Shown one piece after another: positions 16,987-54,292 of a stretch of 64,000 nucleotides of DNA (position 1 is the stretch's first letter; each line of letters starts with the position of its first letter). The stretch is from positions 54,249 to 118,248 of the IMG/VR virus record IMGVR_UViG_3300025141_013870; one strand, given 5' to 3'. Position numbers and translations under genes: made by a program. The notes below the pieces were generated by a model. That model was not told the origin of the DNA. It did not search any database and was given only the letters and a program-made list of their open reading frames with translations. Source of the DNA: a virus.

Positions 16987-17148
16987 ATGCTGATAACAGA
17001 AAGAAGTCTAAGAGCTCTCATTAGAAACGAGCTACGCCTATATTCAAATAAAATACTTGAGGCGAGATTTAAGGGCTGGAGTCCAAGGGGAGATATTGGG
17101 GATTTGATTGACCAGAATCTTGAAGCTAAAGAAGATGACATAGCATGA
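16987..17148 (+). CDS. 53-aa protein missed by ORF track, LRxLIxxE motif
   Basis: MLITERSLRALIRNELRLYSNKILEARFKGWSPRGDIGDLIDQNLEAKEDDIA; stop overlaps next ATG (ATGA). Confidence 0.7.
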   Translation: MLITERSLRALIRNELRLYSNKILEARFKGWSPRGDIGDLIDQNLEAKEDDIA

Positions 17149-18002
17149 TTCTTTCAAGAAAAAATCTTAGGATGCTCATACACGATGTCATGCTTAAGGA
17201 GTCAAAGTATTTTGGCATGTCTGTGGAAGAGGTTCTTTCATTTTTTGATAAGTTTAGTCAAAATACGTGGATATTTTTTGATACAGAGACCACTGGTCTT
17301 CCACGGGATGTACAAAAGGGACAGATAACAGAGATAGGTGCGGTTGCTGTAAATCCTAAAAACTGGAATGACGATGCTGAAATTCTTGGTGAATTCAACG
17401 AGAAGATCACGTTAAATCCGGACACACTTGCAACAATTGAAAGACAGAGGCCTGATACAGAAAGTACACATACTAGTAGCAGGGTGTGGACAGTGGAAAA
17501 GGCACTTGAGATGACACGATATCATGAGTGGGATAGAGAATATAAAGATGAGCAGGATGTTATCAAAGGGTTTATAGAGTTTGTACAGTCATTTTCCAAT
17601 CCGGTTCTTGTAGCGCAGAACGCATCATTTGACATGAAGTGGATCTTCGCACGGTCAGAGACAAAGATGAATAGATACCCTGTTATAGACACAATGAAGA
17701 TAATGCAGCTATTTTTAATTCCGCTTCTTAAGACTTTGCGTGATAAGCATGGAGACGTTGAGGCTAGAGAATTTTTACAGCTGATTAGAAAAGGTAGAAT
17801 GTATTCGTCGTCTCAGGGCGTTGTTTCAGCTGCATATGGAATATCTACGGATAACTGGCATAGTGCAATTGGAGATGTTGAGATGCTCATGGATCTCTTT
17901 CAGCACGTAGTTGACACCCTTAGAGAGGGAGAAGGTGTGGACATAAGCGGAGAGCATGGAAAGACAGCTGCGTATGCGATGAAGAGAAAGAGAAGAAGAT
18001 AA
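17145..18002 (+). CDS. DEDDh 3'-5' exonuclease (DnaQ/epsilon-like) with N-terminal LRxLI motif
   Basis: FFDTETTG (ExoI), AQNASFD (ExoII), WHSAIGD (ExoIII). Confidence 0.85.
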   Translation: MILSRKNLRMLIHDVMLKESKYFGMSVEEVLSFFDKFSQNTWIFFDTETTGLPRDVQKGQITEIGAVAVNPKNWNDDAEILGEFNEKITLNPDTLATIERQRPDTESTHTSSRVWTVEKALEMTRYHEWDREYKDEQDVIKGFIEFVQSFSNPVLVAQNASFDMKWIFARSETKMNRYPVIDTMKIMQLFLIPLLKTLRDKHGDVEAREFLQLIRKGRMYSSSQGVVSAAYGISTDNWHSAIGDVEMLMDLFQHVVDTLREGEGVDISGEHGKTAAYAMKRKRRR

Positions 18003-19404: not shown

Positions 19405-20332
19405 AGATTTATTTGAATTACAAAAAAGATTTAATGATATTTTCTATGATATGGATGATATCGGATCAAGAGAACGAGAAGAGATCACAAAATCTTTAGC
19501 GCTAGCATTACACACTGAGGTTAGCTCTCTTATATCTGCAATAAACTTTAAAGATCACAGGCAGAATAAAAAAGATGCTGATGAATACAAGATCTTGTTT
19601 GAAAGTGTAGATATATTTCGATATCTTATTTCTATTCTAAACATCTGGGATATCACGCCAGAAAGATTTACAGAGGCATTTCTTGATAAGGATTTGTTTC
19701 TTCATGCAAGATACAAGATCAATTCTAGCAAGTGGTCGGGACAGGATGTAATCATAGTAGATCTTGATGATGTAGTAATAGAATTTAGGAATGGTTTTCT
19801 AGAGTGGCTTAGTGATACATATAAAATATTTGTTGACCCTGATAGCAAAGAATACTATACAACTGCTGAATTAAAAAATGCTGGTGTTAATCCTGAAAAG
19901 GTATTTTCTAATTTTATTAAGAGTAGAGGATTAAGATCTTTAGAAAAAAATCAAGATATGATTGATGTAATTAACAAGCTGAGTGCAGACGGATATTGGA
20001 TTCAGCTTTTAACAGCTAGACCGCAAGATAATCTTGTGTGCCATTACGATACGTTTAGATGGATAGAAAGCTCTAATTTAAAATATGATAGATTAGATTT
20101 CAGCAATGAAAAATATAGATGGTGTACCCAGTCTGATTATTTTGATAGCAACAGTATCGTGTGTGCTATAGATGACTCAGCTAAGCATAGTGCTGAATAT
20201 GCAAAACACGGAATTCCAGTTTTTCTTCCTTCAAAAAGTTACAACACTGAAGTACACAATATGACCAATGTAACAGTGTTTGATGATCCGAGAGACGTGT
20301 GGGAAAAAGTTAAATCTCTTAAGAATAAGTAG
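19379..20332 (+). CDS. Fusion: divergent all-alpha NTP pyrophosphatase + HAD 5'(3')-deoxyribonucleotidase
   Basis: N-half LFESVDIFRY; C-half IIVDLDDVV, LLTARP, AIDDS. Confidence 0.7.
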   Translation: MKDSKATIRDLFELQKRFNDIFYDMDDIGSREREEITKSLALALHTEVSSLISAINFKDHRQNKKDADEYKILFESVDIFRYLISILNIWDITPERFTEAFLDKDLFLHARYKINSSKWSGQDVIIVDLDDVVIEFRNGFLEWLSDTYKIFVDPDSKEYYTTAELKNAGVNPEKVFSNFIKSRGLRSLEKNQDMIDVINKLSADGYWIQLLTARPQDNLVCHYDTFRWIESSNLKYDRLDFSNEKYRWCTQSDYFDSNSIVCAIDDSAKHSAEYAKHGIPVFLPSKSYNTEVHNMTNVTVFDDPRDVWEKVKSLKNK

Positions 20333-20352
20333 AATAGGATGGCTTACCTCAA

Positions 20353-21414
20353 ATGATAGATAGAAAATCACTAAGAGATATGATACATGAGATGTCTAAA
20401 TCATCACTATTTGAACAGGATGATACAAATGAAAGAATATCAGCAAGTGATTATGAAAAGATATATTCAGATTCACAGCAATACTTTAGAATCACGCTTA
20501 ACAAGTATGTGGAGAGAATTTCTTCAGAACAATATAAGAAAAAAATAAAAAATCAACTAAGGAAAGATGGATTTAAAGATAGCGAAATAGATGAATTTTT
20601 AGATGATAGTGACTTTCTAGACAGGGTTTCATCTGCAATAGAAAATGCTTCTATTGTTGTTGTCACAAACTCATCTTTTAATTATGACAGACTTGACAGG
20701 TGGTACGGGGCCGTACTTTCAGAAAGAAGCGAAAAATCATGGGCGCCAGATTTTAATAAGCTAAAGGATTCAATTAAAGATTCTGGAAGGATAGCGCAAC
20801 TACTTTTAAAGGTAAAAACATCTATAGGTGATTTTGTAAATCAGACTAGATCATTTGATAGTCCGATTATTCTTATAAGTTTTGAAAATTTTAAAGATGG
20901 AAAAGGAGATCTGAAAGGAACAGTTGAACATGAGGTAGACCATATTCAAGGCTTAATGGTTTCGAAAGCTAGAAAGATTATTAAAAAATCTCCTGATGAG
21001 CCAGAGACATTTTCATCTGCAGTGATATCTCTCGTAAGAGACCCGAGGATTGGAGGATGGGACGAGTGGGTGATTGATAGATTCCAAGGAGATAAAAGAG
21101 AAGCGTTTAATTTTTTAAAAGATTCATTTCAAGGAAATTTAGATCCTTCAAATCCTAGAGGAGTAGAGGAGTCCAGAAATAGATTTCGCGAGCTAAATGA
21201 TAAGCTCGGTGAATCTGAAGCTGCATTAAAAAAATTTCTTAGCAATGAAATTTCTAACCCTACGCCGCACATCCAGCTTGTCTCTAAGTACGGTAGAAGA
21301 ATTGCTCAGATAGTTCCGTTAATAAATTATGACTTGGGTGTGGATGAACTTGCGTCTATGATTTATGGAATAGCTTCTGCAGAAATGCCAGAAAAAAAAT
21401 CTAAAATAGTTTGA
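20353..21414 (+). CDS. Putative virion-associated zinc metallopeptidase-like protein
   Basis: N-terminal LRDMIHE..LFEQ motif; VEHEVDH (HExxH). Confidence 0.5.
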   Translation: MIDRKSLRDMIHEMSKSSLFEQDDTNERISASDYEKIYSDSQQYFRITLNKYVERISSEQYKKKIKNQLRKDGFKDSEIDEFLDDSDFLDRVSSAIENASIVVVTNSSFNYDRLDRWYGAVLSERSEKSWAPDFNKLKDSIKDSGRIAQLLLKVKTSIGDFVNQTRSFDSPIILISFENFKDGKGDLKGTVEHEVDHIQGLMVSKARKIIKKSPDEPETFSSAVISLVRDPRIGGWDEWVIDRFQGDKREAFNFLKDSFQGNLDPSNPRGVEESRNRFRELNDKLGESEAALKKFLSNEISNPTPHIQLVSKYGRRIAQIVPLINYDLGVDELASMIYGIASAEMPEKKSKIV

Positions 21415-33697: not shown

Positions 33698-33970
33698 ATG
33701 AAGACCTTTTCCTCAAAAGATATCTTAGAGATCGTAAAAAAAATACATAATCAAAATGAAAATATTGATGTATTTGCAGGAAAAGGATCAGATAGAAAAA
33801 TAATAGTTAAAAAGGGCCTGAAGATACGTCACAAGCCATCAGGCCTAGTTTATACTGTTTTAAAGGTAATAATTCCAGATGGTAGCTCTGAACCTAAAAT
33901 TTTATGCAGAAGGCCTGGAAAGGAATTACTTATTACGAGAAATGAGTTTAAAGACTACGAGAGGCACTAA
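33698..33970 (+). CDS. Hypothetical protein
   Basis: SD GAGGTG; 90 aa. Confidence 0.75.
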   Translation: MKTFSSKDILEIVKKIHNQNENIDVFAGKGSDRKIIVKKGLKIRHKPSGLVYTVLKVIIPDGSSEPKILCRRPGKELLITRNEFKDYERH

Positions 33971-34680
33971 TGTCAGATAATAAGGATAAAGGATTGTTCA
34001 CACATAAAGATTTGAGAAAAAACATCAGAAAAAGCTTGAATCTTTGTGATGAGAGGCTAGATGAATCCTATGTTGCACAAGTGAAACAATTTAATCTACC
34101 AACAGAATTACTTAGCAAGTCAAGTAAAAAAAATCATATAGTGCTCTACGACAATTATGTAGCTGTATTTAATAGAATTAGCGCTGAGCTTGATACCGCA
34201 GATAGAGCTAGTTCAAATTCTGATCATTCTCAATTTAGAGATCTTAAAGTTGATGAGACATATAATATGAATTCATCTTACTTACATGAATTATACTTTT
34301 CTAACATTAGTGATCTTCATAGCGAGATATCGATGGATTCACTGTCTTATATGCGTCTCGCTAGAGACTTTGGCTCTTTTGATGATTGGCAAAAAGATTT
34401 TGTCGCTTGCTGCTTGGCTTCTAGGTGCGGCTGGGCGATTACATATTTTAATACTTTCATGCAAAGATACATGAATTGCTCTATTGATCTGCATAGTCTT
34501 AATGTTCCCGTGGGTGCTTATCCCGTCATAGTGATGGATGTGTGGCAACATGCTTATTATAGAGACTATCTTAAGGATGTAAAGACATATGTATATGGCA
34601 TGATGAAGCAGCTAAATTGGAAAGTTATAGAAAAACGATTTGAGAAAGCTGATGAAATTCAAAAAATACTAAGGGCATAA
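33970..34680 (+). CDS. sod: Fe/Mn superoxide dismutase family protein with N-terminal extension
   Basis: HIVLYDNYV, LHELYFSN, DVWQHAYYRDY. Confidence 0.8.
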   Translation: MSDNKDKGLFTHKDLRKNIRKSLNLCDERLDESYVAQVKQFNLPTELLSKSSKKNHIVLYDNYVAVFNRISAELDTADRASSNSDHSQFRDLKVDETYNMNSSYLHELYFSNISDLHSEISMDSLSYMRLARDFGSFDDWQKDFVACCLASRCGWAITYFNTFMQRYMNCSIDLHSLNVPVGAYPVIVMDVWQHAYYRDYLKDVKTYVYGMMKQLNWKVIEKRFEKADEIQKILRA

Positions 34681-34681
34681 T

Positions 34682-35338
34682 ATGAAAAATTCAGTTACTA
34701 GAACTATTAGATCTTTGATACTGGAACAGGTAGAAGATCTGTTTGTCAACCCTGCAGCTGCTGAGGAAACAACTCGACTCGAGGTAGATTCAGCAGATGA
34801 TCAAATTGATTCATTTATTTTGAAATTTGAAAAAGATTCAATATCAGAGGATGACAATGAGATCAATAGTCTAAATGAGTCATTATATAATCTGTCTTTA
34901 AAAGCTCTCCTAGAGCAGGAAGAGGACGAAGAAGCTGTTGAAGTAGATGAGGAAGAACCTGTCGAGGATGAGGGTGAAGAGTCTCCGGCTGGTGATGACG
35001 CTGCACCAGAAGATCCTGAACCTGCAGGAAGCGAAGATACAGATGTTGAACCTGCTGAATCTCTTCCAAGACCGCCACTAGACGTTGATTCCTTTACTAA
35101 GCGAGTCGCAAGACTGGCAATGAATCATGAAAACCTTTTAGATATAAAAACAGTTATCATAAACAGAGCTATGAATTTTCTTAAGGAGAATTATGATGAC
35201 GCACACGCCCTTGAGATGAAAGACATTCTTGATTCACAGTTTGATTTTGATCTAGACGGAGGGAAGGAAATACCTTCTGCACCATTTGCTGTAGGCGCCA
35301 ATCCTGCGGGTGCTGGAACTATGGGCGGCGGGGCGTGA
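34682..35338 (+). CDS. Acidic hypothetical protein (head core/scaffold-like)
   Basis: IRSLILEQ, LLEQ motifs, E/D-rich. Confidence 0.65.
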   Translation: MKNSVTRTIRSLILEQVEDLFVNPAAAEETTRLEVDSADDQIDSFILKFEKDSISEDDNEINSLNESLYNLSLKALLEQEEDEEAVEVDEEEPVEDEGEESPAGDDAAPEDPEPAGSEDTDVEPAESLPRPPLDVDSFTKRVARLAMNHENLLDIKTVIINRAMNFLKENYDDAHALEMKDILDSQFDFDLDGGKEIPSAPFAVGANPAGAGTMGGGA

Positions 35339-40622: not shown

Positions 40623-40650
40623 TGTATTTTTAGTTATTTTTTGATAGAAT
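40623..40650 (+). promoter_or_regulatory. Putative TGTAWW-N16-TAnnnT promoter
   Basis: TGTATT-N16-TAGAAT, ATG 6 nt downstream. Confidence 0.5.
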
Positions 40651-40974: not shown

Positions 40975-42030
40975 ATGTTCGCCATGTCTTTATCTGAATT
41001 TCTTTTTGACAAGGATGCAGCTGTCCTTTTTGAGGGAGGGCTTAAGCTACCCGTCAACCAGAGGCATAGGCTAGCAGAGCTTACTCCTGACGTTGCAGAT
41101 CAAGCTATAAAGATATATGAGGATTTAATTAATAGGTGGAATGGATATCTTATCTCTATTGGAGAAGAACCCGTTAAAGCGCTTAGACCAACAGGTTCAG
41201 TTAGCTATTACCAGCTTGATATCTCGCAGAGCAAAGATAACGTGTATGGCGACATAGATTATCTTGTTGAGTTTCCTTTGGCAGTAGAAGGAAATGAATC
41301 TGAGATAAGGCAAGCAGATAGAAGAGCAGACAAAAAATACACAGAACTATTTATTAATTTTTTAAATACAAAGATGCCTGATATTGTAGATGTAGAAGCA
41401 ACCTTGGAGGGCAGGACACCCATGATGGTGATGATACGTCTGCCAGATAACAAGCTAGTTCAAGTTGATACTGTAAAAACATTTCCTAGATATTCATCTT
41501 GGATGGAGGGGCGCTATACGCCAGAGAGAGGATTAAAAGGATATACAACAGGAAATCTCTATAAGGCACTAGGGGACTACCTAGTAATGTCAATTGGAAC
41601 AGAAGGTGTAATAGTTAGATCAAAGATGGGTCAAAGAGTCCAGTCTAAGTTTTCACGAAGTAAAGGAGTCGAAACATCAAGCATTAGTCTTGATATAAGA
41701 AACTTTCTAAGAGATATAGCTAGATATATCATAGGATCCGATGACATAGAAGAAGACCCGCTTTTGACAAAAAATCCAGGAGTAGATCCTGTAAACGTGA
41801 AAATATCTGGAATTGCACGTGGAATCAAGGGTCTTGCAAGAACACTAGGGAAGTACGGTGTGTACGATACAGATGATATGCTAAGAGAGATTCACTCCAG
41901 CTATGTGGAAAATGTAAGAAAAAACATAGAAAATAAATTGAACAAGGGATTAGACGAGACAGCTTATCAAAAACTGTTACAGCTAAATGATCATGTGGCA
42001 GCTATAGTAAAGAAAGAGTTTGGTATTTAA
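40975..42030 (+). CDS. Pol-beta-superfamily nucleotidyltransferase
   Basis: TGSV..GDID (GS + DxD) and third Asp in LVQVD; LFEGG after short N-terminal peptide. Confidence 0.65.
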   Translation: MFAMSLSEFLFDKDAAVLFEGGLKLPVNQRHRLAELTPDVADQAIKIYEDLINRWNGYLISIGEEPVKALRPTGSVSYYQLDISQSKDNVYGDIDYLVEFPLAVEGNESEIRQADRRADKKYTELFINFLNTKMPDIVDVEATLEGRTPMMVMIRLPDNKLVQVDTVKTFPRYSSWMEGRYTPERGLKGYTTGNLYKALGDYLVMSIGTEGVIVRSKMGQRVQSKFSRSKGVETSSISLDIRNFLRDIARYIIGSDDIEEDPLLTKNPGVDPVNVKISGIARGIKGLARTLGKYGVYDTDDMLREIHSSYVENVRKNIENKLNKGLDETAYQKLLQLNDHVAAIVKKEFGI

Positions 42031-42682
42031 CGTGGATTATTTTATTTCAGATATACATTTTGGTCATAAGAACATTATAAGACTTTGTGACAGGCCGTTT
42101 AGTTCTGTTTCAGAGATGAATAGCGAGATTATTAAAAAATGGAATTCAATAGTCACAGATGCAGATAGGGTTTTTGTTGTAGGAGATGTTTTTTTGTGCC
42201 CTCTATTAGAGGTAAAGTCGTATATGAAAGAACTGAACGGGTACAAGATTCTCATAAAAGGTAACCATGATTTATCAAAATCAATGATGCTAGAGGCGGG
42301 ATTTGATGAATACCATAGGAGCTATGATTATACGATGCCAGATGGAAGAGTTGCACTTCTAAAGCATTATCCTGTTCCTGACTGCCTACTAGATATGTAT
42401 GATTTAATGATACACGGACACATACATATATCAAAGAGGCTACGAGGCAAGAAGATTAATGTGAGCTGTGATATATGGGATTTTACGCCTATAGGTGTAG
42501 ATGTTTTAAACGAGATGGATACGCGATCTATTTGCAAGGATGATTCAGAATTTGTTGAGGTATCTTTAGATGATGATAAAATGTTAACAATGAATGTAAA
42601 AATACCGATGCTTGATGTCTCAGGATTCATTGATCATATGTATAGACAAATGAATGGGAAGTGGCCGCGGAGTAGAGAATGA
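42020..42682 (+). CDS. Calcineurin-like metallophosphoesterase
   Basis: SDIHFGH, VGD, KGNHD, HYP, HGHIH; start may be GTG 42032. Confidence 0.88.
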   Translation: MVFNVDYFISDIHFGHKNIIRLCDRPFSSVSEMNSEIIKKWNSIVTDADRVFVVGDVFLCPLLEVKSYMKELNGYKILIKGNHDLSKSMMLEAGFDEYHRSYDYTMPDGRVALLKHYPVPDCLLDMYDLMIHGHIHISKRLRGKKINVSCDIWDFTPIGVDVLNEMDTRSICKDDSEFVEVSLDDDKMLTMNVKIPMLDVSGFIDHMYRQMNGKWPRSRE

Positions 42683-43482
42683 AATTAGGATTATTTGGCG
42701 GAGGATTCAAACCATTCACAACTGGTCACTTTGCTAAATTAGCAAATGCAATAAGAGATAATGATAAGGTTTATCTATTCTACGGAATTCAGGAAAGGAA
42801 GCCTCCAAAAATTGGAAAAAGAGGAAAGCCCCTAAAGTCCCAGCAAAAATTTAGACCCATAGGAGATAGTGGAAGATTCTATACGCCAGAGATATCTAGA
42901 GAAATTTTCGCCATATATGAGAGAGCAATTGAAAGAGAGCTTCCAATGGTAGAGGTTGAATCTACAATAGGCAGCACGCCTATGAGAAGAGTGTTTGAAA
43001 TTATTGAAGAGTTTGTAGAAAATCCAGAGATGTATGAGAAGGTTACAATCTACGGAGCTGGAGACACTATTAGAGAGTATCTTAGAAAGCTACCATACTT
43101 TGGAGATCTTATAGAGACTGGAAAGGTACAGCTAGGATCGATATCTCCGGAATCTGCAAATGATTATCTTGATGAAGAGAGGCTCGTGGATATAATAGGT
43201 CAAAGTGAAGAAAGTGCATTGTCATCTTTAGGTTCGTATTATCCAGACGCTTCACAAGAGGACATAGAAAGAATGCAGAGAATAAGGGGCACAGAGGTTA
43301 GGGATATTGCATCAACAAAATCAGGAATCGAAGAGGCAAAGAGATTCCTACCGCCATTTTTAAATAATGATGAGAAGCAGCAGGTGATAAATCTATTACT
43401 AGGAGAAATTTCACCTCCACAGGATCAAGCGCTATCTGAGCTTTATTTGAGAAGTTTTATAAGAGGGATTATAAGAGGTTGA
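42679..43482 (+). CDS. HxGH-superfamily (cytidylyl/adenylyltransferase-like) nucleotidyltransferase
   Basis: FGGGFKPFTTGHF; IRGTEVRD as KMSKS-equivalent loop. Confidence 0.7.
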   Translation: MKLGLFGGGFKPFTTGHFAKLANAIRDNDKVYLFYGIQERKPPKIGKRGKPLKSQQKFRPIGDSGRFYTPEISREIFAIYERAIERELPMVEVESTIGSTPMRRVFEIIEEFVENPEMYEKVTIYGAGDTIREYLRKLPYFGDLIETGKVQLGSISPESANDYLDEERLVDIIGQSEESALSSLGSYYPDASQEDIERMQRIRGTEVRDIASTKSGIEEAKRFLPPFLNNDEKQQVINLLLGEISPPQDQALSELYLRSFIRGIIRG

Positions 43483-43483
43483 T

Positions 43484-46400
43484 GTGGCTATAATTTTAAC
43501 ACCAGATATGATTGCGAGAGCATCTCATAAGTTTACTGCAAAGAAGTTTATAACAGAACAGGATGAGCCAGATCTTACAAAACATATCTGGCATTTTTAT
43601 GAAGATTTTGAGATGCCTCTCTCTGAGCTATTTGAATTAATTGATGCAGCAAAGGCGGGTGAGCTGCAAGACGTAGAGGAAAAACTAGATGGACAAAACA
43701 TAACCTTTACAGTTAGAGACGGAACTCTTCTCTTCTTTAATAAGGGCGGCAGTGGCCAGGGAAAAGATAGATCGGGAGTAATGTCTCACCCAGTCGAGAG
43801 CGTGAGAAATGCTTTTATTAAAGCATATGACGCAATTGAAGAGATAGCAATTCCTAGTGACGACCCTAGCAGGTGGCAGAACCTTTTTCAAAATGGTGCT
43901 GTGATGATTGAGAGTGCGATTCTCACGCCTGAAAATCCTAATACAATAGTATATGACACTCCTTCGATAAGATTTATCAAGACGTCTACGAGCAGTCCAG
44001 ATGTAAATTTAGCATTTTCTGAGTTTAAGTCTGTTGCAGACTCAACTGTTAATGAAGAGTTTTATATGGGACCAGTTCCCTATCTTAATCTAAAGGCATC
44101 TCTCGAAGCAACTGATCAGGAAGCGGATGACATCAAAGGAAATCTTTCACAATTAGTCTTTAGTTACGGAGTCTCTACGCAAGGGACAGTTGGAAATCTT
44201 ATTCACGCCATGGTTAGAATAAGATTAGAGAAGAGTGGCTTAGTTCCAGATTCTTTATTAGATCTAGCAGCTACACGAGTTTCGACTGGAAGAGGACCAA
44301 TAGGAAGAATGTTTCCAAAAATTGCTGGAAAAGATGCATGGGTAACATTTCAAACAGAGGTACTTAATAATAGGCAATCCTACCTTGCGGAATCTATAAT
44401 CCCTCTAGAGAGAATAATTCAAAGAGTTGGGTCCTTAGCATTTAGAAATCTTGAATTTACTCTTGAGGCAGGAAATAGAGATGATCTGATTCAGCAGGTA
44501 GCTGATACTAAAAGAGCATTTGAAGGTGGACACATACTCGCTAGCCCAAAGCAACTGGAAGGAATCAGAGTAGCTCTAGATAGGATAGGCATGTCATCAG
44601 CTGATGACATGGACAATAGATTTAGTAGAGCGACTGAAGGGATAGTCTTCCAGTGGAAGGGAAAGACAAGAAAGCTAACTGGTCTCTTTACACCTATTAA
44701 TAAGCTTAGGGGATTCTTCGCTTACGGAGAAAACAAGGCAACAATACAAGAGCCTGTCACTCCTAATGCACTACAAGAAGCTATTAGAAAAAATTTAAAT
44801 ATGCTTTTATTCGAAGGCGGTAATGCATTTAAATATCCAGACGGAACGAATGTAACAAGGCAAGAGAGAATACCACGTTCAGAGGTTGAACCAATCGTCT
44901 CAAATTTTGTGAAAGACATTCTTGAACCACTAGGAATGGATCATATAGGAGTAGGAACAACTGTGACTGATACCCCTGATGTCGGAGATGTTGATGTAGT
45001 AGTTAGTGCAAATAATTCTAGAAGCCTCTATTCTCAGTTGTCAGCTCATCCTGAATTACAGAGAGAGCTTTCTGAAGCCCCGGGTATAAATAGACTTTAT
45101 TCACTCCCCGGCGGTGCGGGAATCGCAGTATTATATAAAGTTCCATCTACAGGTGATCTGGTTCAGGTAGATGTAATGCCAAGCAAAGGTGTCGATCTTG
45201 AACATATTTCGTGGATGCTAGCAGGAGCTTCTGCAGGCGGTGCAAAGTCACGATATAAAAACATACTTCTATCATGGATAGCAAAAAACAAGAGTGAAAA
45301 AGAGTCAGCAGAGACTGGCCAGAATATTAAATACACATACGCGCGAGGGCTTTTGAAAAAGATAGACGGTATTCCAGAGCAAGGCGGTAGAGTTACTGAT
45401 CCTGATGTCTTTTTACCTATGTTAGGTATCACTGCATCAAAGGGTGCAGTAAGATCATTTGAAGGACTTGTTGATGAGATGAGAAAAGATACCTTCCTCA
45501 GTTCAATATTACCAAAATATAGAGAGTATCTTAATAATACAAGTCATCTATTAAGTCCAGACCCTAGGAGAGCAGCTGAGGCTGAGGAAGCTATGAGATA
45601 TATAGAAGGAGGATCTATGGATGAAGTATTTAGAAATATAATAAAACATCTTTTAGAAGAGGGAGAACAAATAAATTTATTTCCAGATACCGGCACACCT
45701 GATGGATCAGGAAAAGAAAGAATTGACTACAGGTGGCTTAATGACAACTCTGTAGAAGATCCATTATATGACCACGCTTCTAAAAAGCTTTATCCCGCTG
45801 GGTATGCTGCACTTCTTAAGGGCATGACAAGCGAGAGTGCTGGAAAGGAAAGGGTCGAAGGAGAGAAATTCGAGCATGGAATAATCGAATACGCCAAAGA
45901 GATCGGCGCAGGAAATATGAAACGAGTCGGAGGTCAAGGAGAGGATCTGCAAGGTGTCTCAGGCGCAGTGCAAGGTAGGTCATATGAGCTTAAAAAGACA
46001 AAGGCGTCAACGCCTAATTTAAAACTTAACTCATCATTTCCAAAACCAAAGGAAAAACACTATTATATGTTTGTGACAAATCTTCCAATGATTGATGAGA
46101 TGAAAGTTGGGATGGGGAATTTATCGCAGACAGGAAAAGATTTTGAAACATTTGAGGGAGAGCTTGATGAGTTAAATAGCTTCATTCAGGAAATAAATTA
46201 CTTTTCTAAAGCTTTAAGCGCAACTGAAAGAGAGTCTATAGTTAGACGTACTAAAGATAGACTAGAGATGTCTACAAGACAACAGACGTTGCCTCTTCCT
46301 GATCGTGAAACAAACGTTGTTACAGAGGCAGAAGCCCCTCAGCATAGTGACACAGTCGATAGATTTATTAATCTTATAGATAAAATTGGAAAGAAAAACT

Positions 46401-46909
46401 ATGATGACTACAATGAAAGTGATTCTGAAAGACTTGAAGTAATCAACAGCCTTGAGCATAATGGGAAGGTGTCTTCTGCTGCACTAAAAAGACAAATCAC
46501 AACTAAACTTGACGGATCTAAAAGTCAAACACAGCTTCAAAAAGAACTTACAAAAGTCTTTAGAAATATACTGGGCGATCTTAGATGTTGGGTAGTTCCT
46601 AGCACCGCACTAAGAGTTTCTCTTCTTGCATCTGCATTTAAGGGAGGTGACGGAAAGATATTTGACAAATCCACGGGAAACTTGTTACCCGGAGGAAAGA
46701 AACATATTGAAGAGGAGCTCAGAAATAAATTTGGAGATTTAGATTTAGCAGGCAAGCTAGCTGAGAAAATTTCTCCAGAAATTGTAAACCAAGCGCAGGG
46801 AACAGCGGTAAAGAAAAAGGAGTCTGAGTGGGACATACGATTGGGTCTGTTAAAGGTTAGGGTTAGCTTAAAAATAGAACCCCCTACTGTAAAAGGTGAT
46901 GATGATTAA
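43484..46909 (+). CDS. Multidomain protein: ligase-like adenylyltransferase + Pol-beta NTase + PD-(D/E)xK nuclease-like
   Basis: EEKLDG (K67), EGIVF (E385), KLTG; GTT..GDVD and LVQVD; GEKFE..EDL..YELKK. Confidence 0.6.
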   Translation: MAIILTPDMIARASHKFTAKKFITEQDEPDLTKHIWHFYEDFEMPLSELFELIDAAKAGELQDVEEKLDGQNITFTVRDGTLLFFNKGGSGQGKDRSGVMSHPVESVRNAFIKAYDAIEEIAIPSDDPSRWQNLFQNGAVMIESAILTPENPNTIVYDTPSIRFIKTSTSSPDVNLAFSEFKSVADSTVNEEFYMGPVPYLNLKASLEATDQEADDIKGNLSQLVFSYGVSTQGTVGNLIHAMVRIRLEKSGLVPDSLLDLAATRVSTGRGPIGRMFPKIAGKDAWVTFQTEVLNNRQSYLAESIIPLERIIQRVGSLAFRNLEFTLEAGNRDDLIQQVADTKRAFEGGHILASPKQLEGIRVALDRIGMSSADDMDNRFSRATEGIVFQWKGKTRKLTGLFTPINKLRGFFAYGENKATIQEPVTPNALQEAIRKNLNMLLFEGGNAFKYPDGTNVTRQERIPRSEVEPIVSNFVKDILEPLGMDHIGVGTTVTDTPDVGDVDVVVSANNSRSLYSQLSAHPELQRELSEAPGINRLYSLPGGAGIAVLYKVPSTGDLVQVDVMPSKGVDLEHISWMLAGASAGGAKSRYKNILLSWIAKNKSEKESAETGQNIKYTYARGLLKKIDGIPEQGGRVTDPDVFLPMLGITASKGAVRSFEGLVDEMRKDTFLSSILPKYREYLNNTSHLLSPDPRRAAEAEEAMRYIEGGSMDEVFRNIIKHLLEEGEQINLFPDTGTPDGSGKERIDYRWLNDNSVEDPLYDHASKKLYPAGYAALLKGMTSESAGKERVEGEKFEHGIIEYAKEIGAGNMKRVGGQGEDLQGVSGAVQGRSYELKKTKASTPNLKLNSSFPKPKEKHYYMFVTNLPMIDEMKVGMGNLSQTGKDFETFEGELDELNSFIQEINYFSKALSATERESIVRRTKDRLEMSTRQQTLPLPDRETNVVTEAEAPQHSDTVDRFINLIDKIGKKNYDDYNESDSERLEVINSLEHNGKVSSAALKRQITTKLDGSKSQTQLQKELTKVFRNILGDLRCWVVPSTALRVSLLASAFKGGDGKIFDKSTGNLLPGGKKHIEEELRNKFGDLDLAGKLAEKISPEIVNQAQGTAVKKKESEWDIRLGLLKVRVSLKIEPPTVKGDDD

Positions 46910-46924: not shown

Positions 46925-47197
46925 GTGACAATGTCAACTGAAAAAATATTTGAACAGGTTAGGTTTGTCTCCTCTTATGTGGGTGACTGTGATGACTGGG
47001 TGACAGTTAAGAAACAGGTTATGTTAAATCTGCCGTCAGTGCTAAGAAAGAACTTCTCTACTAGAGATCCTAAAACTAAAGAGCAGTGGTTGAATGATTT
47101 TGAGAAGGAGCTGATTAATTACTATAGGGAGCTAACCGGAGTGACGCTAGTGTTAAGAACCCTTGCTCAGCGGAGAGAGATATTCGATGTCTTATAA
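46925..47197 (+). CDS. Hypothetical protein
   Basis: 90-aa ORF. Confidence 0.7.
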   Translation: MTMSTEKIFEQVRFVSSYVGDCDDWVTVKKQVMLNLPSVLRKNFSTRDPKTKEQWLNDFEKELINYYRELTGVTLVLRTLAQRREIFDVL

Positions 47198-48098
47198 TGA
47201 AGAACTTCTAAAAGAATTTATTCGAAGATCTATTGACAACAGAGTTGATGAGAGAATTAGATCTGATGCTGGAAAGGCTGCCGGAGATGTGCACATAGGT
47301 GCACCAAAGCACACAGCGTTTGGAGATAGGTGGGGATGGCACGGTACTGTTGAGAGATGTCCTGAGCGTGAGTGTGGAATACTTCACACCCTTGGTATGA
47401 CAAAAAGCACGTGGGAGTGGCCTGGAAAGATGAAGAATTTTTTCACAGCGTGGTGGGATCTTGCAACAAGCACAGGCCAAAAGTTTCTTGAAATTTTGGA
47501 GAGCACTGTGAATCCGAGCCCGGGATCTCAAAAGAACTGGGCGTTTCCACGAGTTCAAAAATTCGTAGATAAAGCAACTGGAAAAGGACCGAAAGGAAGA
47601 GCATCGTGGGGATCTTCATATGCCACTGCAAAGCCTAGATCTGGCGGAGATATTACCGGCGGGTCACTCTTTACAGGCGGCGAAGCTGGCATAAAAGAAT
47701 CTCTCAATAAACTCGATCCTCTTCTGGTGAGGTCTTTATTGTCAGAAGCTGCAGGTGACACTGAGTTTATATCGGCATTGACTGGAGATCTTGGTGACAT
47801 CGCTGCATTTGTTAATAATGTGAAAACAGGTCTGGATGTTATAGATACTGTCTCAACATGGAAGGAAAAAGTTGATACTAATGGATCTGTGACAGATCTT
47901 TCGGTTTCTAAAGAGGATCTTAAAGCTGATGATTTAGATGAGGGGCGGCTGATGCAGGAATTAATTGACGATGTTTTGTTGCCTTACATAAGAGAGATGC
48001 TAGATGAGATGCCTGCTGTTCTTTCAAAGATGGGCGTGCCAGATGATATGATGCCTGAGGTAGAACAAATGATAAGCGCTACATCTCAAAAGATTTAA
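47187..48098 (+). CDS. Hypothetical protein with LKEFIR motif (putative virion internal)
   Basis: YNEELLKEFIRRSI; LVRSLLSEA. Confidence 0.7.
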   Translation: MSYNEELLKEFIRRSIDNRVDERIRSDAGKAAGDVHIGAPKHTAFGDRWGWHGTVERCPERECGILHTLGMTKSTWEWPGKMKNFFTAWWDLATSTGQKFLEILESTVNPSPGSQKNWAFPRVQKFVDKATGKGPKGRASWGSSYATAKPRSGGDITGGSLFTGGEAGIKESLNKLDPLLVRSLLSEAAGDTEFISALTGDLGDIAAFVNNVKTGLDVIDTVSTWKEKVDTNGSVTDLSVSKEDLKADDLDEGRLMQELIDDVLLPYIREMLDEMPAVLSKMGVPDDMMPEVEQMISATSQKI

Positions 48099-48112: not shown

Positions 48113-48502
48113 TTGAGTATTGTGTTATCATTAAATGATTCTAGGGAGATGCACATGTCAGATAACTGGATACCAGAAATACTATACGAAGAGGATGAAA
48201 CTGGTGGTTCATCAGCAATTCCTTTTATAATGGTGCCAGACAACGAGACAATGCCACGCTTGTTATATATTTTTGAGAGCCGAGATACTGGTGAATTTGA
48301 ACCTGGAAATGAAGGGGAAGAGCTCCCAGTCGTTCAGTGGGATCTTCATCAATATGCAGATATGGCTATTTTAAAGAGCTCTTTAGAGCCTACTGTATAT
48401 GATATTGTTCGAGACGTTCTTGGATTAGAACCACTAGTGTCAGCAGCTAAAAAGGGTAAAGAAATAACTGATTCAGTCAATAGAAGCGTAAACTCTAATT
48501 AA
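48113..48502 (+). CDS. Hypothetical protein
   Basis: Likely start ATG 48149/48155. Confidence 0.7.
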   Translation: MSIVLSLNDSREMHMSDNWIPEILYEEDETGGSSAIPFIMVPDNETMPRLLYIFESRDTGEFEPGNEGEELPVVQWDLHQYADMAILKSSLEPTVYDIVRDVLGLEPLVSAAKKGKEITDSVNRSVNSN

Positions 48503-51707: not shown

Positions 51708-52085
51708 ATGAACTCTAAGTCTATTTTAAAAGAATATGTGAATCTTCTTTTAGAAGTTGATGAAACTAGATTGAAACATGAACAGATGAAGATTGGTTGT
51801 CATCTTATCATGAATCCCGATGCACATGTGCCAGATACGCTTACGCGAATAAGAGCTCTTGCAACAGTCACTGTTGTAGGACAGCAACAGCCTGTCAATA
51901 GAACGTCTATGGGAAACACTATTCTTGATGTCTACGTGAAATTTCTTCCTTCGTCTGGGAGCACATATAAGAATCTCGTATCTATAGCAAAGCTTATTAA
52001 GTCATTGCCAGGAATTAGAATAGTCAAGGTAGTTTCTGTCGGTGGAAAACCAATTCTGTATAAGGGTGAACATATAGTTTTATGA
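51708..52085 (+). CDS. Hypothetical protein with LKEYVNLLLE motif
   Basis: 125-aa ORF. Confidence 0.7.
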   Translation: MNSKSILKEYVNLLLEVDETRLKHEQMKIGCHLIMNPDAHVPDTLTRIRALATVTVVGQQQPVNRTSMGNTILDVYVKFLPSSGSTYKNLVSIAKLIKSLPGIRIVKVVSVGGKPILYKGEHIVL

Positions 52086-54090: not shown

Positions 54091-54292
54091 CATTAAGAAA
54101 GGCAGTCTTGTCAAAAATATTAGAAGTGATGAGATAGGAATGATTGTTGAGGAGAATATGGAAATTAACGATTCACAGTATTACAAAGTATTGCTAGACG
54201 GTAAGATTGTAAGCTGGTTTAAACCAAATATTGAAACAGTTGAGAAATCTGATGAACGAACCTACAGAGATAGCAGAAGGAATCTGGCTTGA
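54074..54292 (+). CDS. Small SH3/KOW-like hypothetical protein
   Basis: KGSLVK..GMIV..YYKV pattern. Confidence 0.55.
   Translation: MGMKIDIKKGSLVKNIRSDEIGMIVEENMEINDSQYYKVLLDGKIVSWFKPNIETVEKSDERTYRDSRRNLA

Follow-up and report, generated by a model that had tools for sequence, protein, structure and literature searches.

Putative prohead protease sites between the enzyme modules of a 1141-residue protein from a giant T4-like marine phage

Is the 1141-residue product of a single phage gene one multidomain enzyme, or is it a precursor whose enzymes are cut apart when the phage head matures? This question is raised by the open reading frame (ORF) P0001 in a stretch of 64,000 nucleotides from the IMG/VR record IMGVR_UViG_3300025141_013870 (positions 54,249 to 118,248; this whole stretch is referred to as the window, and coordinates are those of the window unless the contig is named). 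An earlier note, made from the letters of the window, had described P0001 as a polyprotein, the three enzyme domains of which are separated by linkers resembling cleavage sites of T4-type prohead proteases, and had suggested that it is packaged whole and cut in the head. The window forms the right-hand part (64 kb) of an uncultured virus contig of 118,248 bp with an estimated completeness of 37%, and the phage genome should thus measure about 300 kb. A T4-type head and tail set, i.e. large terminase, gp20-type portal, Peptidase_S77, gp23-type capsid protein and sheath, lies to the left of the window, and the window itself contains genes for DnaB, ribonucleotide reductase, a DnaE-type polymerase, nucleotide metabolism and GroEL; the source is a giant T4-like marine phage. 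We find that P0001 consists of three intact catalytic modules and that its joints carry a Glu that goes with the junction, and we propose that these joints are sites for the prohead protease of the phage, a reading to which we give roughly even weight for and against.

The ORF and its modules are located as follows:
43484..46909, + strand: whole ORF P0001, 1141 aa, GTG start (ORF listing)
43586..44728, + strand: ligase-like covalent nucleotidyltransferase (NTase), residues ~35-415 (invariant columns; PF09414; ligase fold of African swine fever virus, ASFV)
44816..45613, + strand: family-X polymerase-like NTase, residues 445-710, palm and thumb (VIA-align, Foldseek, invariants)
45728..46885, + strand: PD-(D/E)xK nuclease module, residues ~749-1134 (invariants, secondary structure, VIA-align)

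Pfam and PHROGs were nearly blank for P0001, a PDB sequence search gave no match and a PDB profile search returned only Pol lambda (E about 0.6). Megablast and tblastn against 50,697 phage records revealed no close cultured relative, the sole match being a weak one in an uncultured 484-kb phage. In a scan of prokaryote genomes only two small fragments of metagenome-assembled genomes matched, and therefore there are no cellular relatives that could be used as a protease-free control. The protein collection, however, contained one 100% identical protein and full-length homologues with 33-81% identity to P0001, and alignments and models were built from forty full or partial metagenomic homologues, with 29 sequences for the invariants of the ligase and polymerase-X modules (alignment A1), 16 for those of the nuclease (A2) and 41 for the ranking of the joints.

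The ligase-like module exhibits motif I (K67-L-D-G-Q-N), motif IV (E385-G-I-V-F) and motif V (K393-G-K-T-R-K397), and K67-L-D-G, E385-G-I-V-F and K395/K397 are invariant in the 29 sequences. The Pfam family RNA_ligase (PF09414) matches 15 of 29 homologues at E<=0.05 (best 9e-5), P0001 itself scoring 13.8 bits against a cut-off of 27. A whole-chain search gave a weak fold match to the ASFV ligase (Z 5.8), and an oligonucleotide-binding (OB) domain is absent. In a language-model search the neighbours of this module were DUF6267 clusters (0.96, 27/30 matches); neither a hidden Markov model (HMM) of the family nor hhalign nor Pfam scans of distant members confirmed this kinship, which is left as a lead.

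In the second module G501-D502-x-D504 and D563 are invariant (29 sequences). VIA-align superimposes it on the palm and thumb of Pol beta (Z 10.0, 174 aa), on Thermus PolX (Z 9.7) and on ASFV PolX (Z 8.1, 161/176 aa), NTases from outside family X align over the palm only, and Foldseek finds Pol lambda with a probability of 1.0. Neither the 8-kDa lyase nor the fingers domain of family X was found before residue 445, a make-up like that of the minimal ASFV PolX. The module may instead be a non-templated NTase. The polymerase-X fold favours a DNA substrate, the ligase type fits DNA or RNA.

The nuclease module shows the alpha-beta-beta-beta core of PD-(D/E)xK enzymes with a catalytic set, E797 in a helix and D821 and E835-L-K837 in strands, that is invariant in 16 sequences. 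Its VIA-align matches are weak (Z 5.8 RecU, 5.5 Hjc, 5.2 NhoI and restriction enzyme 3ndh), no Foldseek hit reached E<=0.001, and the language-model neighbours, clusters of the R.HinP1I/ThaI/PvuII type (0.83-0.87), are a lead only. A long helical insertion at ~870-1030 is missing in one homologue (P0013, as an HMM gap), and an HMM of the module detected no stand-alone or differently fused copies over the related loci. Homologue ends and intact active sites thus bear out the three enzymes of the earlier note and their limits, its NTase being refined to a family-X polymerase-like palm and thumb and its nuclease-like part to a PD-(D/E)xK nuclease with a full catalytic set.

How are these modules held together? 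The connecting segments are the following (a slash marks the putative cleavage site):
43484..43558, + strand: N-terminal leader of 25 residues, helix 7-25, ending ITE25/Q (joint 1)
44762..44815, + strand: joint 2, amphipathic helix 427-442 and LFE444, then G445-G446
45617..45661, + strand: joint 3, amphipathic helix 712-726 (VFRNIIKHLLEE) ending L724-E725-E726
45662..45727, + strand: disordered linker 727-748 (GEQINLFPDTGTPDGSGKERID), acidic and of low complexity in relatives

The motifs that had been pointed out before, KKFITE25/Q, NMLLFE444/GG and KHLLEE726/G, are indeed present at these places. For the third site the motif stands, but the exact bond had to be moved: the conserved P1 residue is E726, and the predicted new N-terminus is G727. 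In the AlphaFold model of the full-length protein each joint consists of a helix that passes into coil, and the predicted local distance difference test (pLDDT) falls below 50 at residues 19-34, 400-445 and 711-744, with about 48-50 for the helix of joint 3. The joints are therefore not buried in the folds, i.e. the linkers are flexible, as had been expected; buried linkers would have refuted the earlier note.

The mere presence of the motif is not significant, since P0001 contains 19 copies of [LI]xE, close to the 14.2 +/- 3.3 of shuffled sequences. Its conservation, however, singles out the joints: in the 41-sequence alignment conserved [LI]xE ranks highest at 444 (33/35), followed by 51, 726 (24/27), 531 and 25 (25/41), so that the three joints take the first, third and fifth place among about 1140 positions. 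Of the three, joint 1 shows the weakest conservation (Glu in 33/41 sequences, hydrophobic-x-E in 30/41). In fused relatives, the linker leading from a HIGH-type NTase module to the ligase is homologous to the 25-residue leader, and at the place of this leader relatives either have a motif with two hydrophobic residues (hh-x-E) or start there.

The joints are also the places where homologues end and genes are split. Homologues stop at ~q423-436 (ligase only, 411-434 aa) or at ~q708-724 (ligase and polymerase X, ~700-720 aa), and some carry an extra N-terminal HIGH-NTase module of 250 aa, which is encoded by a separate upstream gene in the phage studied here. A search for homologues split at the joints, which the earlier note had proposed as a check, was run: ligase and polymerase X are on separate genes in the loci L010, L011, L013 and L014, and in L017 all parts are on separate genes.

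In the aligned sequences the presence of the Glu is tied to the junction rather than to one of the flanking modules. At joint 2 Glu444 is found in 46/46 aligned fused proteins, whereas six stand-alone polymerase-X genes have Met at the position aligned with E444, with GG next in 5/6. At joint 3 Glu726 is present in 34/35 proteins that continue beyond it versus 0/16 that end there (Fisher p 2e-12), and it is kept whatever comes next, be it the nuclease, a protein kinase or unrelated modules; at least 6 switches between 'continues' and 'stops' are counted on a tree built from the polymerase-X module. The homologue with the kinase is P0017 (1478 aa), in which Pkinase (Pfam, from residue 740) replaces the nuclease right after an ILNE/G joint. 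A much wider and distant clade shows the ligase module behind a variety of N-terminal parts, joined to them as hh-x-E/GGAAGHLAHPFED (hh-x-E/GGAAGH), with L or I at P3, and the stand-alone ligases of this clade start with MGG(I/V/L)(A/G)GH, directly past the stop codon of the upstream gene; there, the ligase gene lies 1-2 kb ahead of the terminase gene, a synteny that is not kept in the phage studied here. Other stand-alone ligases possess leaders of 13-14 residues, M(M)IRQLIREMLMLE/NGPEAH.

A serious rival, which we hold to be rather unlikely, is an uncut multidomain repair enzyme, the helices of which would be flexible linkers or docking elements with the Glu capping the helix where the chain continues. 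Co-operating enzymes are often fused or split, a single chain is well suited to cutting, filling and sealing, as bacterial LigD shows, and the split relatives L011, L013 and L017 retain the helix on both sides of the split, C-terminally in the first protein and N-terminally in the following one, in the manner of docking partners. A helix cap leaves unexplained, though, that P3 is L or I nearly everywhere, that the Glu is missing in all 16 proteins ending at joint 3, that h-x-E/GG precedes two unrelated folds, namely the ligase of the distant clade and the polymerase X of P0001, and that stand-alone genes start exactly with M-GG.

Which protease could act on the joints? The T4-type prohead protease that the earlier note had invoked is encoded on the contig: an S77 gene of the gp21 type is located at contig positions 19545-19988, adjoining the portal and capsid genes (PF03420, 88 bits, E 2.6e-26), and S77 genes are present in 26/48 related fragments and in 3/3 of those that are at least 75% complete. 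T4 gp21 cuts after the Glu of I/L-x-E; N-terminal propeptides with this motif target internal proteins to the T4 prohead core and are then removed, and Alt, an enzyme, is cut by gp21 at both ends (PMC9026906, PMC12991175). An Asp at P1 prevents processing in T4 without abolishing targeting (PMC9026906). The same rule can be read in the head genes of the phage studied here. Its own protease starts with ...LLTE/W (LLIE/TW in T4 gp21), and the acidic protein encoded ahead of the capsid gene with ...YTEAIAE/A (...EQLIAE/A in T4 gp22). Two small proteins encoded right after the protease gene (contig 20081-20587 and 20632-20907) start with ...SIVKECLVEILQE/G and ...LKKIVLE/E. In T4, small prohead-core proteins stand at that place. 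Since [LI]xE is conserved at the joints, their Glu is confined to the junction and an S77 gene lies on the contig, we infer that cleavage by the S77 protease is the best reading of P0001, E444 and E726 being the most likely points of cleavage and E25 a probable one.

Several observations weigh against this reading. The gene of P0001 sits among genes for replication and nucleotide metabolism, 80 kb away from the head genes. This objection is tempered by T4, where the ip and alt genes likewise lie outside the head cluster. LFE51, in the second place of the conservation ranking, lies inside the folded ligase, and the LxE motif alone thus does not mark a cut. The strongly conserved block E-G-G-N-A-F at joint 2 could be a structural or catalytic element of the polymerase-X module. 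Finally, a 1398-aa distant relative (L039:9101-13297, identical in L040-L042) has a weak match to Peptidase_M78/DUF6782 (E 9e-4) just before a LIVE/GG joint, which brings in another protease, either a Glu-specific one of the host or a phage metallopeptidase as embedded in 'polyvalent proteins', where such metallopeptidases are the published mechanism of release (PMC5512222). We regard this alternative as very improbable: domain scans found no peptidase domain in P0001 or its close relatives, the motif is the gp21 rule, and the S77 gene occurs in all near-complete contigs. After its joint the L039 chain continues with the ligase module, followed by a PGDYG domain and then a cytidylyltransferase, and its layout is that of polyvalent proteins in which a peptidase is embedded.

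If the S77 protease cuts P0001, does it do so in the head? The genes upstream of P0001 bear on this point:
40631..40637, + strand: TAGTTAT, 26 nt before the ORF opening the gene row (weak; possible late-type promoter element)
40975..42030, + strand: stand-alone NTase P0043; leader of 20 residues with the end LFE20/GG
42020..42682, + strand: calcineurin-type metallophosphoesterase, overlapping both neighbours (PF00149, E 4e-5; phrog_547, E 2e-43)
42679..43482, + strand: NTase P0044 with a HIGH motif (GGFKPFTTGH)

The P0001 ORF is the last in this row of overlapping or abutting genes, and its GTG start lies 1 base past the upstream stop codon, i.e. it is translationally coupled to the upstream gene. 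P0044 ends with the C-terminal helix LYLRSFIRGIIRG, and in many relatives (P0046 and others) a P0044-type HIGH module forms the N-terminal part of the same chain. P0043 starts with MFAMSLSEFLFDKDAAVLFE20/GG and does share the end of its leader with joint 2, as had been noticed earlier; a homologue with 63% identity (L085) has a different leader with the end YLRE/GG, and both leaders finish with L-x-E/GG. BLAST of P0043 against the polymerase-X module gave nothing significant beyond the LFEGG word, so that P0043 is no more than a candidate relative of this module.

Leaders of this kind are not confined to the gene row. Start helices of the LRxxIxxhhxE type are found on otherwise unrelated proteins (17145-18002, 33970-34680, 34682-35338, 47163-48098, 51708-52085 and 20353-21414); carriers include a DEDD/RNase_T exonuclease, the Pfam domain of which begins at residue 43, and a superoxide-dismutase-like protein (Sod_Fe_C at 129-223) that is extended at its N-terminus by an estimated ~35 aa. 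Matches to the strict leader pattern fall within 40-50 residues of a protein end in 18/34 cases, about 31% being expected.

The timing of expression may point in the same direction. The word TAGTTAT is found 24-27 nt ahead of the tail-tube gene and of four others, the opener of the gene row among them, as well as 40 nt ahead of the sheath gene and 15 nt ahead of another gene, and upstream regions contain it 6 times versus 0.26 expected. More generally, ATAGTTAT or TTAGTTAT stands 15-40 nt, mostly 24-27 nt, ahead of the starts of the sheath gene, the tail-tube gene and five other genes (contig 30231, 36582 and 50459, left of the window; window 51684, 55050 and 40631). The T4 late promoter word TATAAATA occurs in 3 copies, all intragenic and none preceding a gene. 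TAGTTAT may be the late promoter element of this phage.

A further hint comes from cyanophage S-SZBM1, CsCl-purified virions of which contained a cytidylyltransferase (PMC9146016). This protein (PF01467) has the leader MRFRQFIIE/A and resembles chains of the polyprotein family (phmmer 5e-8), presumably via their HIGH-type NTase modules. The gene beside it, S-SZBM1 gene 141 (L091:7478-8671), encodes a DUF6267 protein (E 4e-130). As evidence for packaging of P0001 the detection has its limits, as it consists of 2 peptides and concerns a distant relative of the neighbouring P0044-type module rather than of P0001. From the leaders on other enzymes, the TAGTTAT word and the virion cytidylyltransferase we infer that P0001 is possibly packaged into the head and delivered, a step that we put forward tentatively and by analogy.

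Cleavage alone would not prove packaging, because gp21, when produced by itself, is able to cleave a host NTase of the cytosol, at an LPE motif in an exposed loop (PMC12991175). In the same way P0001 might be cut in the cytoplasm, by the prohead protease or some other late protease, as a late timing switch that releases or changes the enzymes. The position of the P0001 gene among replication genes would suit such a switch. The leaders on other enzymes and on the small proteins beside the protease gene fit a targeting tag better, however, and T4 gp21 is normally restrained by assembly and autoproteolysis (PMC12991175), and we consider cutting without packaging improbable.

Thus, based on our findings we propose that P0001 is a precursor in which an exposed amphipathic helix ending in (L/I)-x-Glu connects each module to the next, i.e. 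the ligase for sealing, the polymerase-X-type NTase for gap-filling and the PD-(D/E)xK nuclease. By analogy with the internal proteins and Alt of T4, the helices may double as capsid-targeting tags, so that the chain would be loaded into the prohead, cut inside by the S77 protease and delivered together with the DNA. The released N-termini (GGNAFK...) would be those of the relatives' stand-alone genes minus the start Met. Once released, the nuclease would trim, the polymerase-X module fill and the ligase seal, and the neighbouring phosphoesterase could clean 3' ends.

Two ORFs 3' of the polyprotein gene, of 90 aa (46925-47197) and 129 aa (48113-48502), follow the split genes in the same order in L017 and L021 and thus probably belong to the gene row. 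A 151-aa ORF at 16504-16959 matches the HhH-GPD family of base-excision glycosylases (E 3e-6) and represents a further repair gene.

How does P0001 compare with known systems? The T4 proteins IPI-III and Alt (PMC9026906) likewise combine a T4-type S77 protease with short N-terminal peptides that end in (L/I)-x-Glu and sit on unrelated proteins; the peptides vary in sequence and are fixed in their end, and Alt is an enzyme cut at both ends. P0001 differs in that the motif, here a predicted cleavage site, is found between the enzyme modules of a single long protein as well, and in its putative cargo, which would consist of ligase, polymerase X and nuclease. The leaders, of 13-25 aa, exceed those of T4 in length and follow the pattern LRxxIRxxhhxE. 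With polyvalent proteins (Iyer et al. 2017, PMC5512222) P0001 shares that several unrelated enzyme domains are carried by one polypeptide, that modules are swapped among relatives (nuclease, kinase, unknown modules, an added HIGH-type NTase) and that delivery with the DNA and proteolytic release have been proposed. Its domains are those of repair rather than of the toxin and effector set, however, domain scans of P0001 and its close relatives revealed neither an embedded peptidase nor a MuF or portal fusion, and its release would be the work of a separate protein, the head protease, acting in trans on a joint motif that is fixed.

The giant phages phiKZ, 201phi2-1 and SPN3US (PMC9026906, PMC10052503) likewise have a protease related to gp21 and cleavage after Glu that needs few further determinants, and their heads contain numerous enzymes; their sites have been mapped by mass spectrometry, whereas those of the uncultured phage studied here are predicted. 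The HIGH-type NTase of S-SZBM1 (PMC9146016) has a leader that fits the same rule. A combination of end-cleaning, gap-filling and sealing is found in bacterial LigD and in the ASFV set of PolX, ligase and apurinic/apyrimidinic (AP) endonuclease. LigD consists of a ligase, a polymerase and a phosphoesterase. Its polymerase is of the primase type and not of family X, though, and no Ku was found in the 118-kb contig; moreover, the ligase of P0001 differs from those of LigD and the ASFV set in being RNA-ligase-like and devoid of an OB domain, the polymerase-X module resembling ASFV PolX in its minimal palm and thumb. A full-text literature search found no description of a phage polyprotein cut by a prohead protease; a system of trans-processed enzyme polyproteins is not known to have been described for bacteriophages.

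If the joints are cut, P0001 would be the bacteriophage counterpart of a viral polyprotein, its enzymes being linked by cleavage sites of the protease that matures the head, and these sites being the exact points at which phages exchange modules. The (L/I)-x-E-ended helix, together with stand-alone relatives starting at the next residue, would provide a rule for recognizing head cargo in uncultured T4-like phages, and the tag could serve for loading foreign proteins into capsids, a use to which the IPIII tag has been put with T4 proheads. More broadly, and with modest confidence, we suggest that T4-like giant marine phages may load a changeable capsid kit of repair and protective enzymes, comprising ligase, polymerase X, nuclease, HIGH-type NTase, DEDD exonuclease and superoxide-dismutase-like protein, by means of a portable LRxxIRxxhhxE helix that is both tag and cutting site, the polyproteins being cut at maturation and injected. 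If true, this would extend the T4 idea of capsid targeting from small internal proteins to a complete set for cutting, filling and sealing, and would suggest that large ocean phages carry their own repair machinery into the cell along with the genome.

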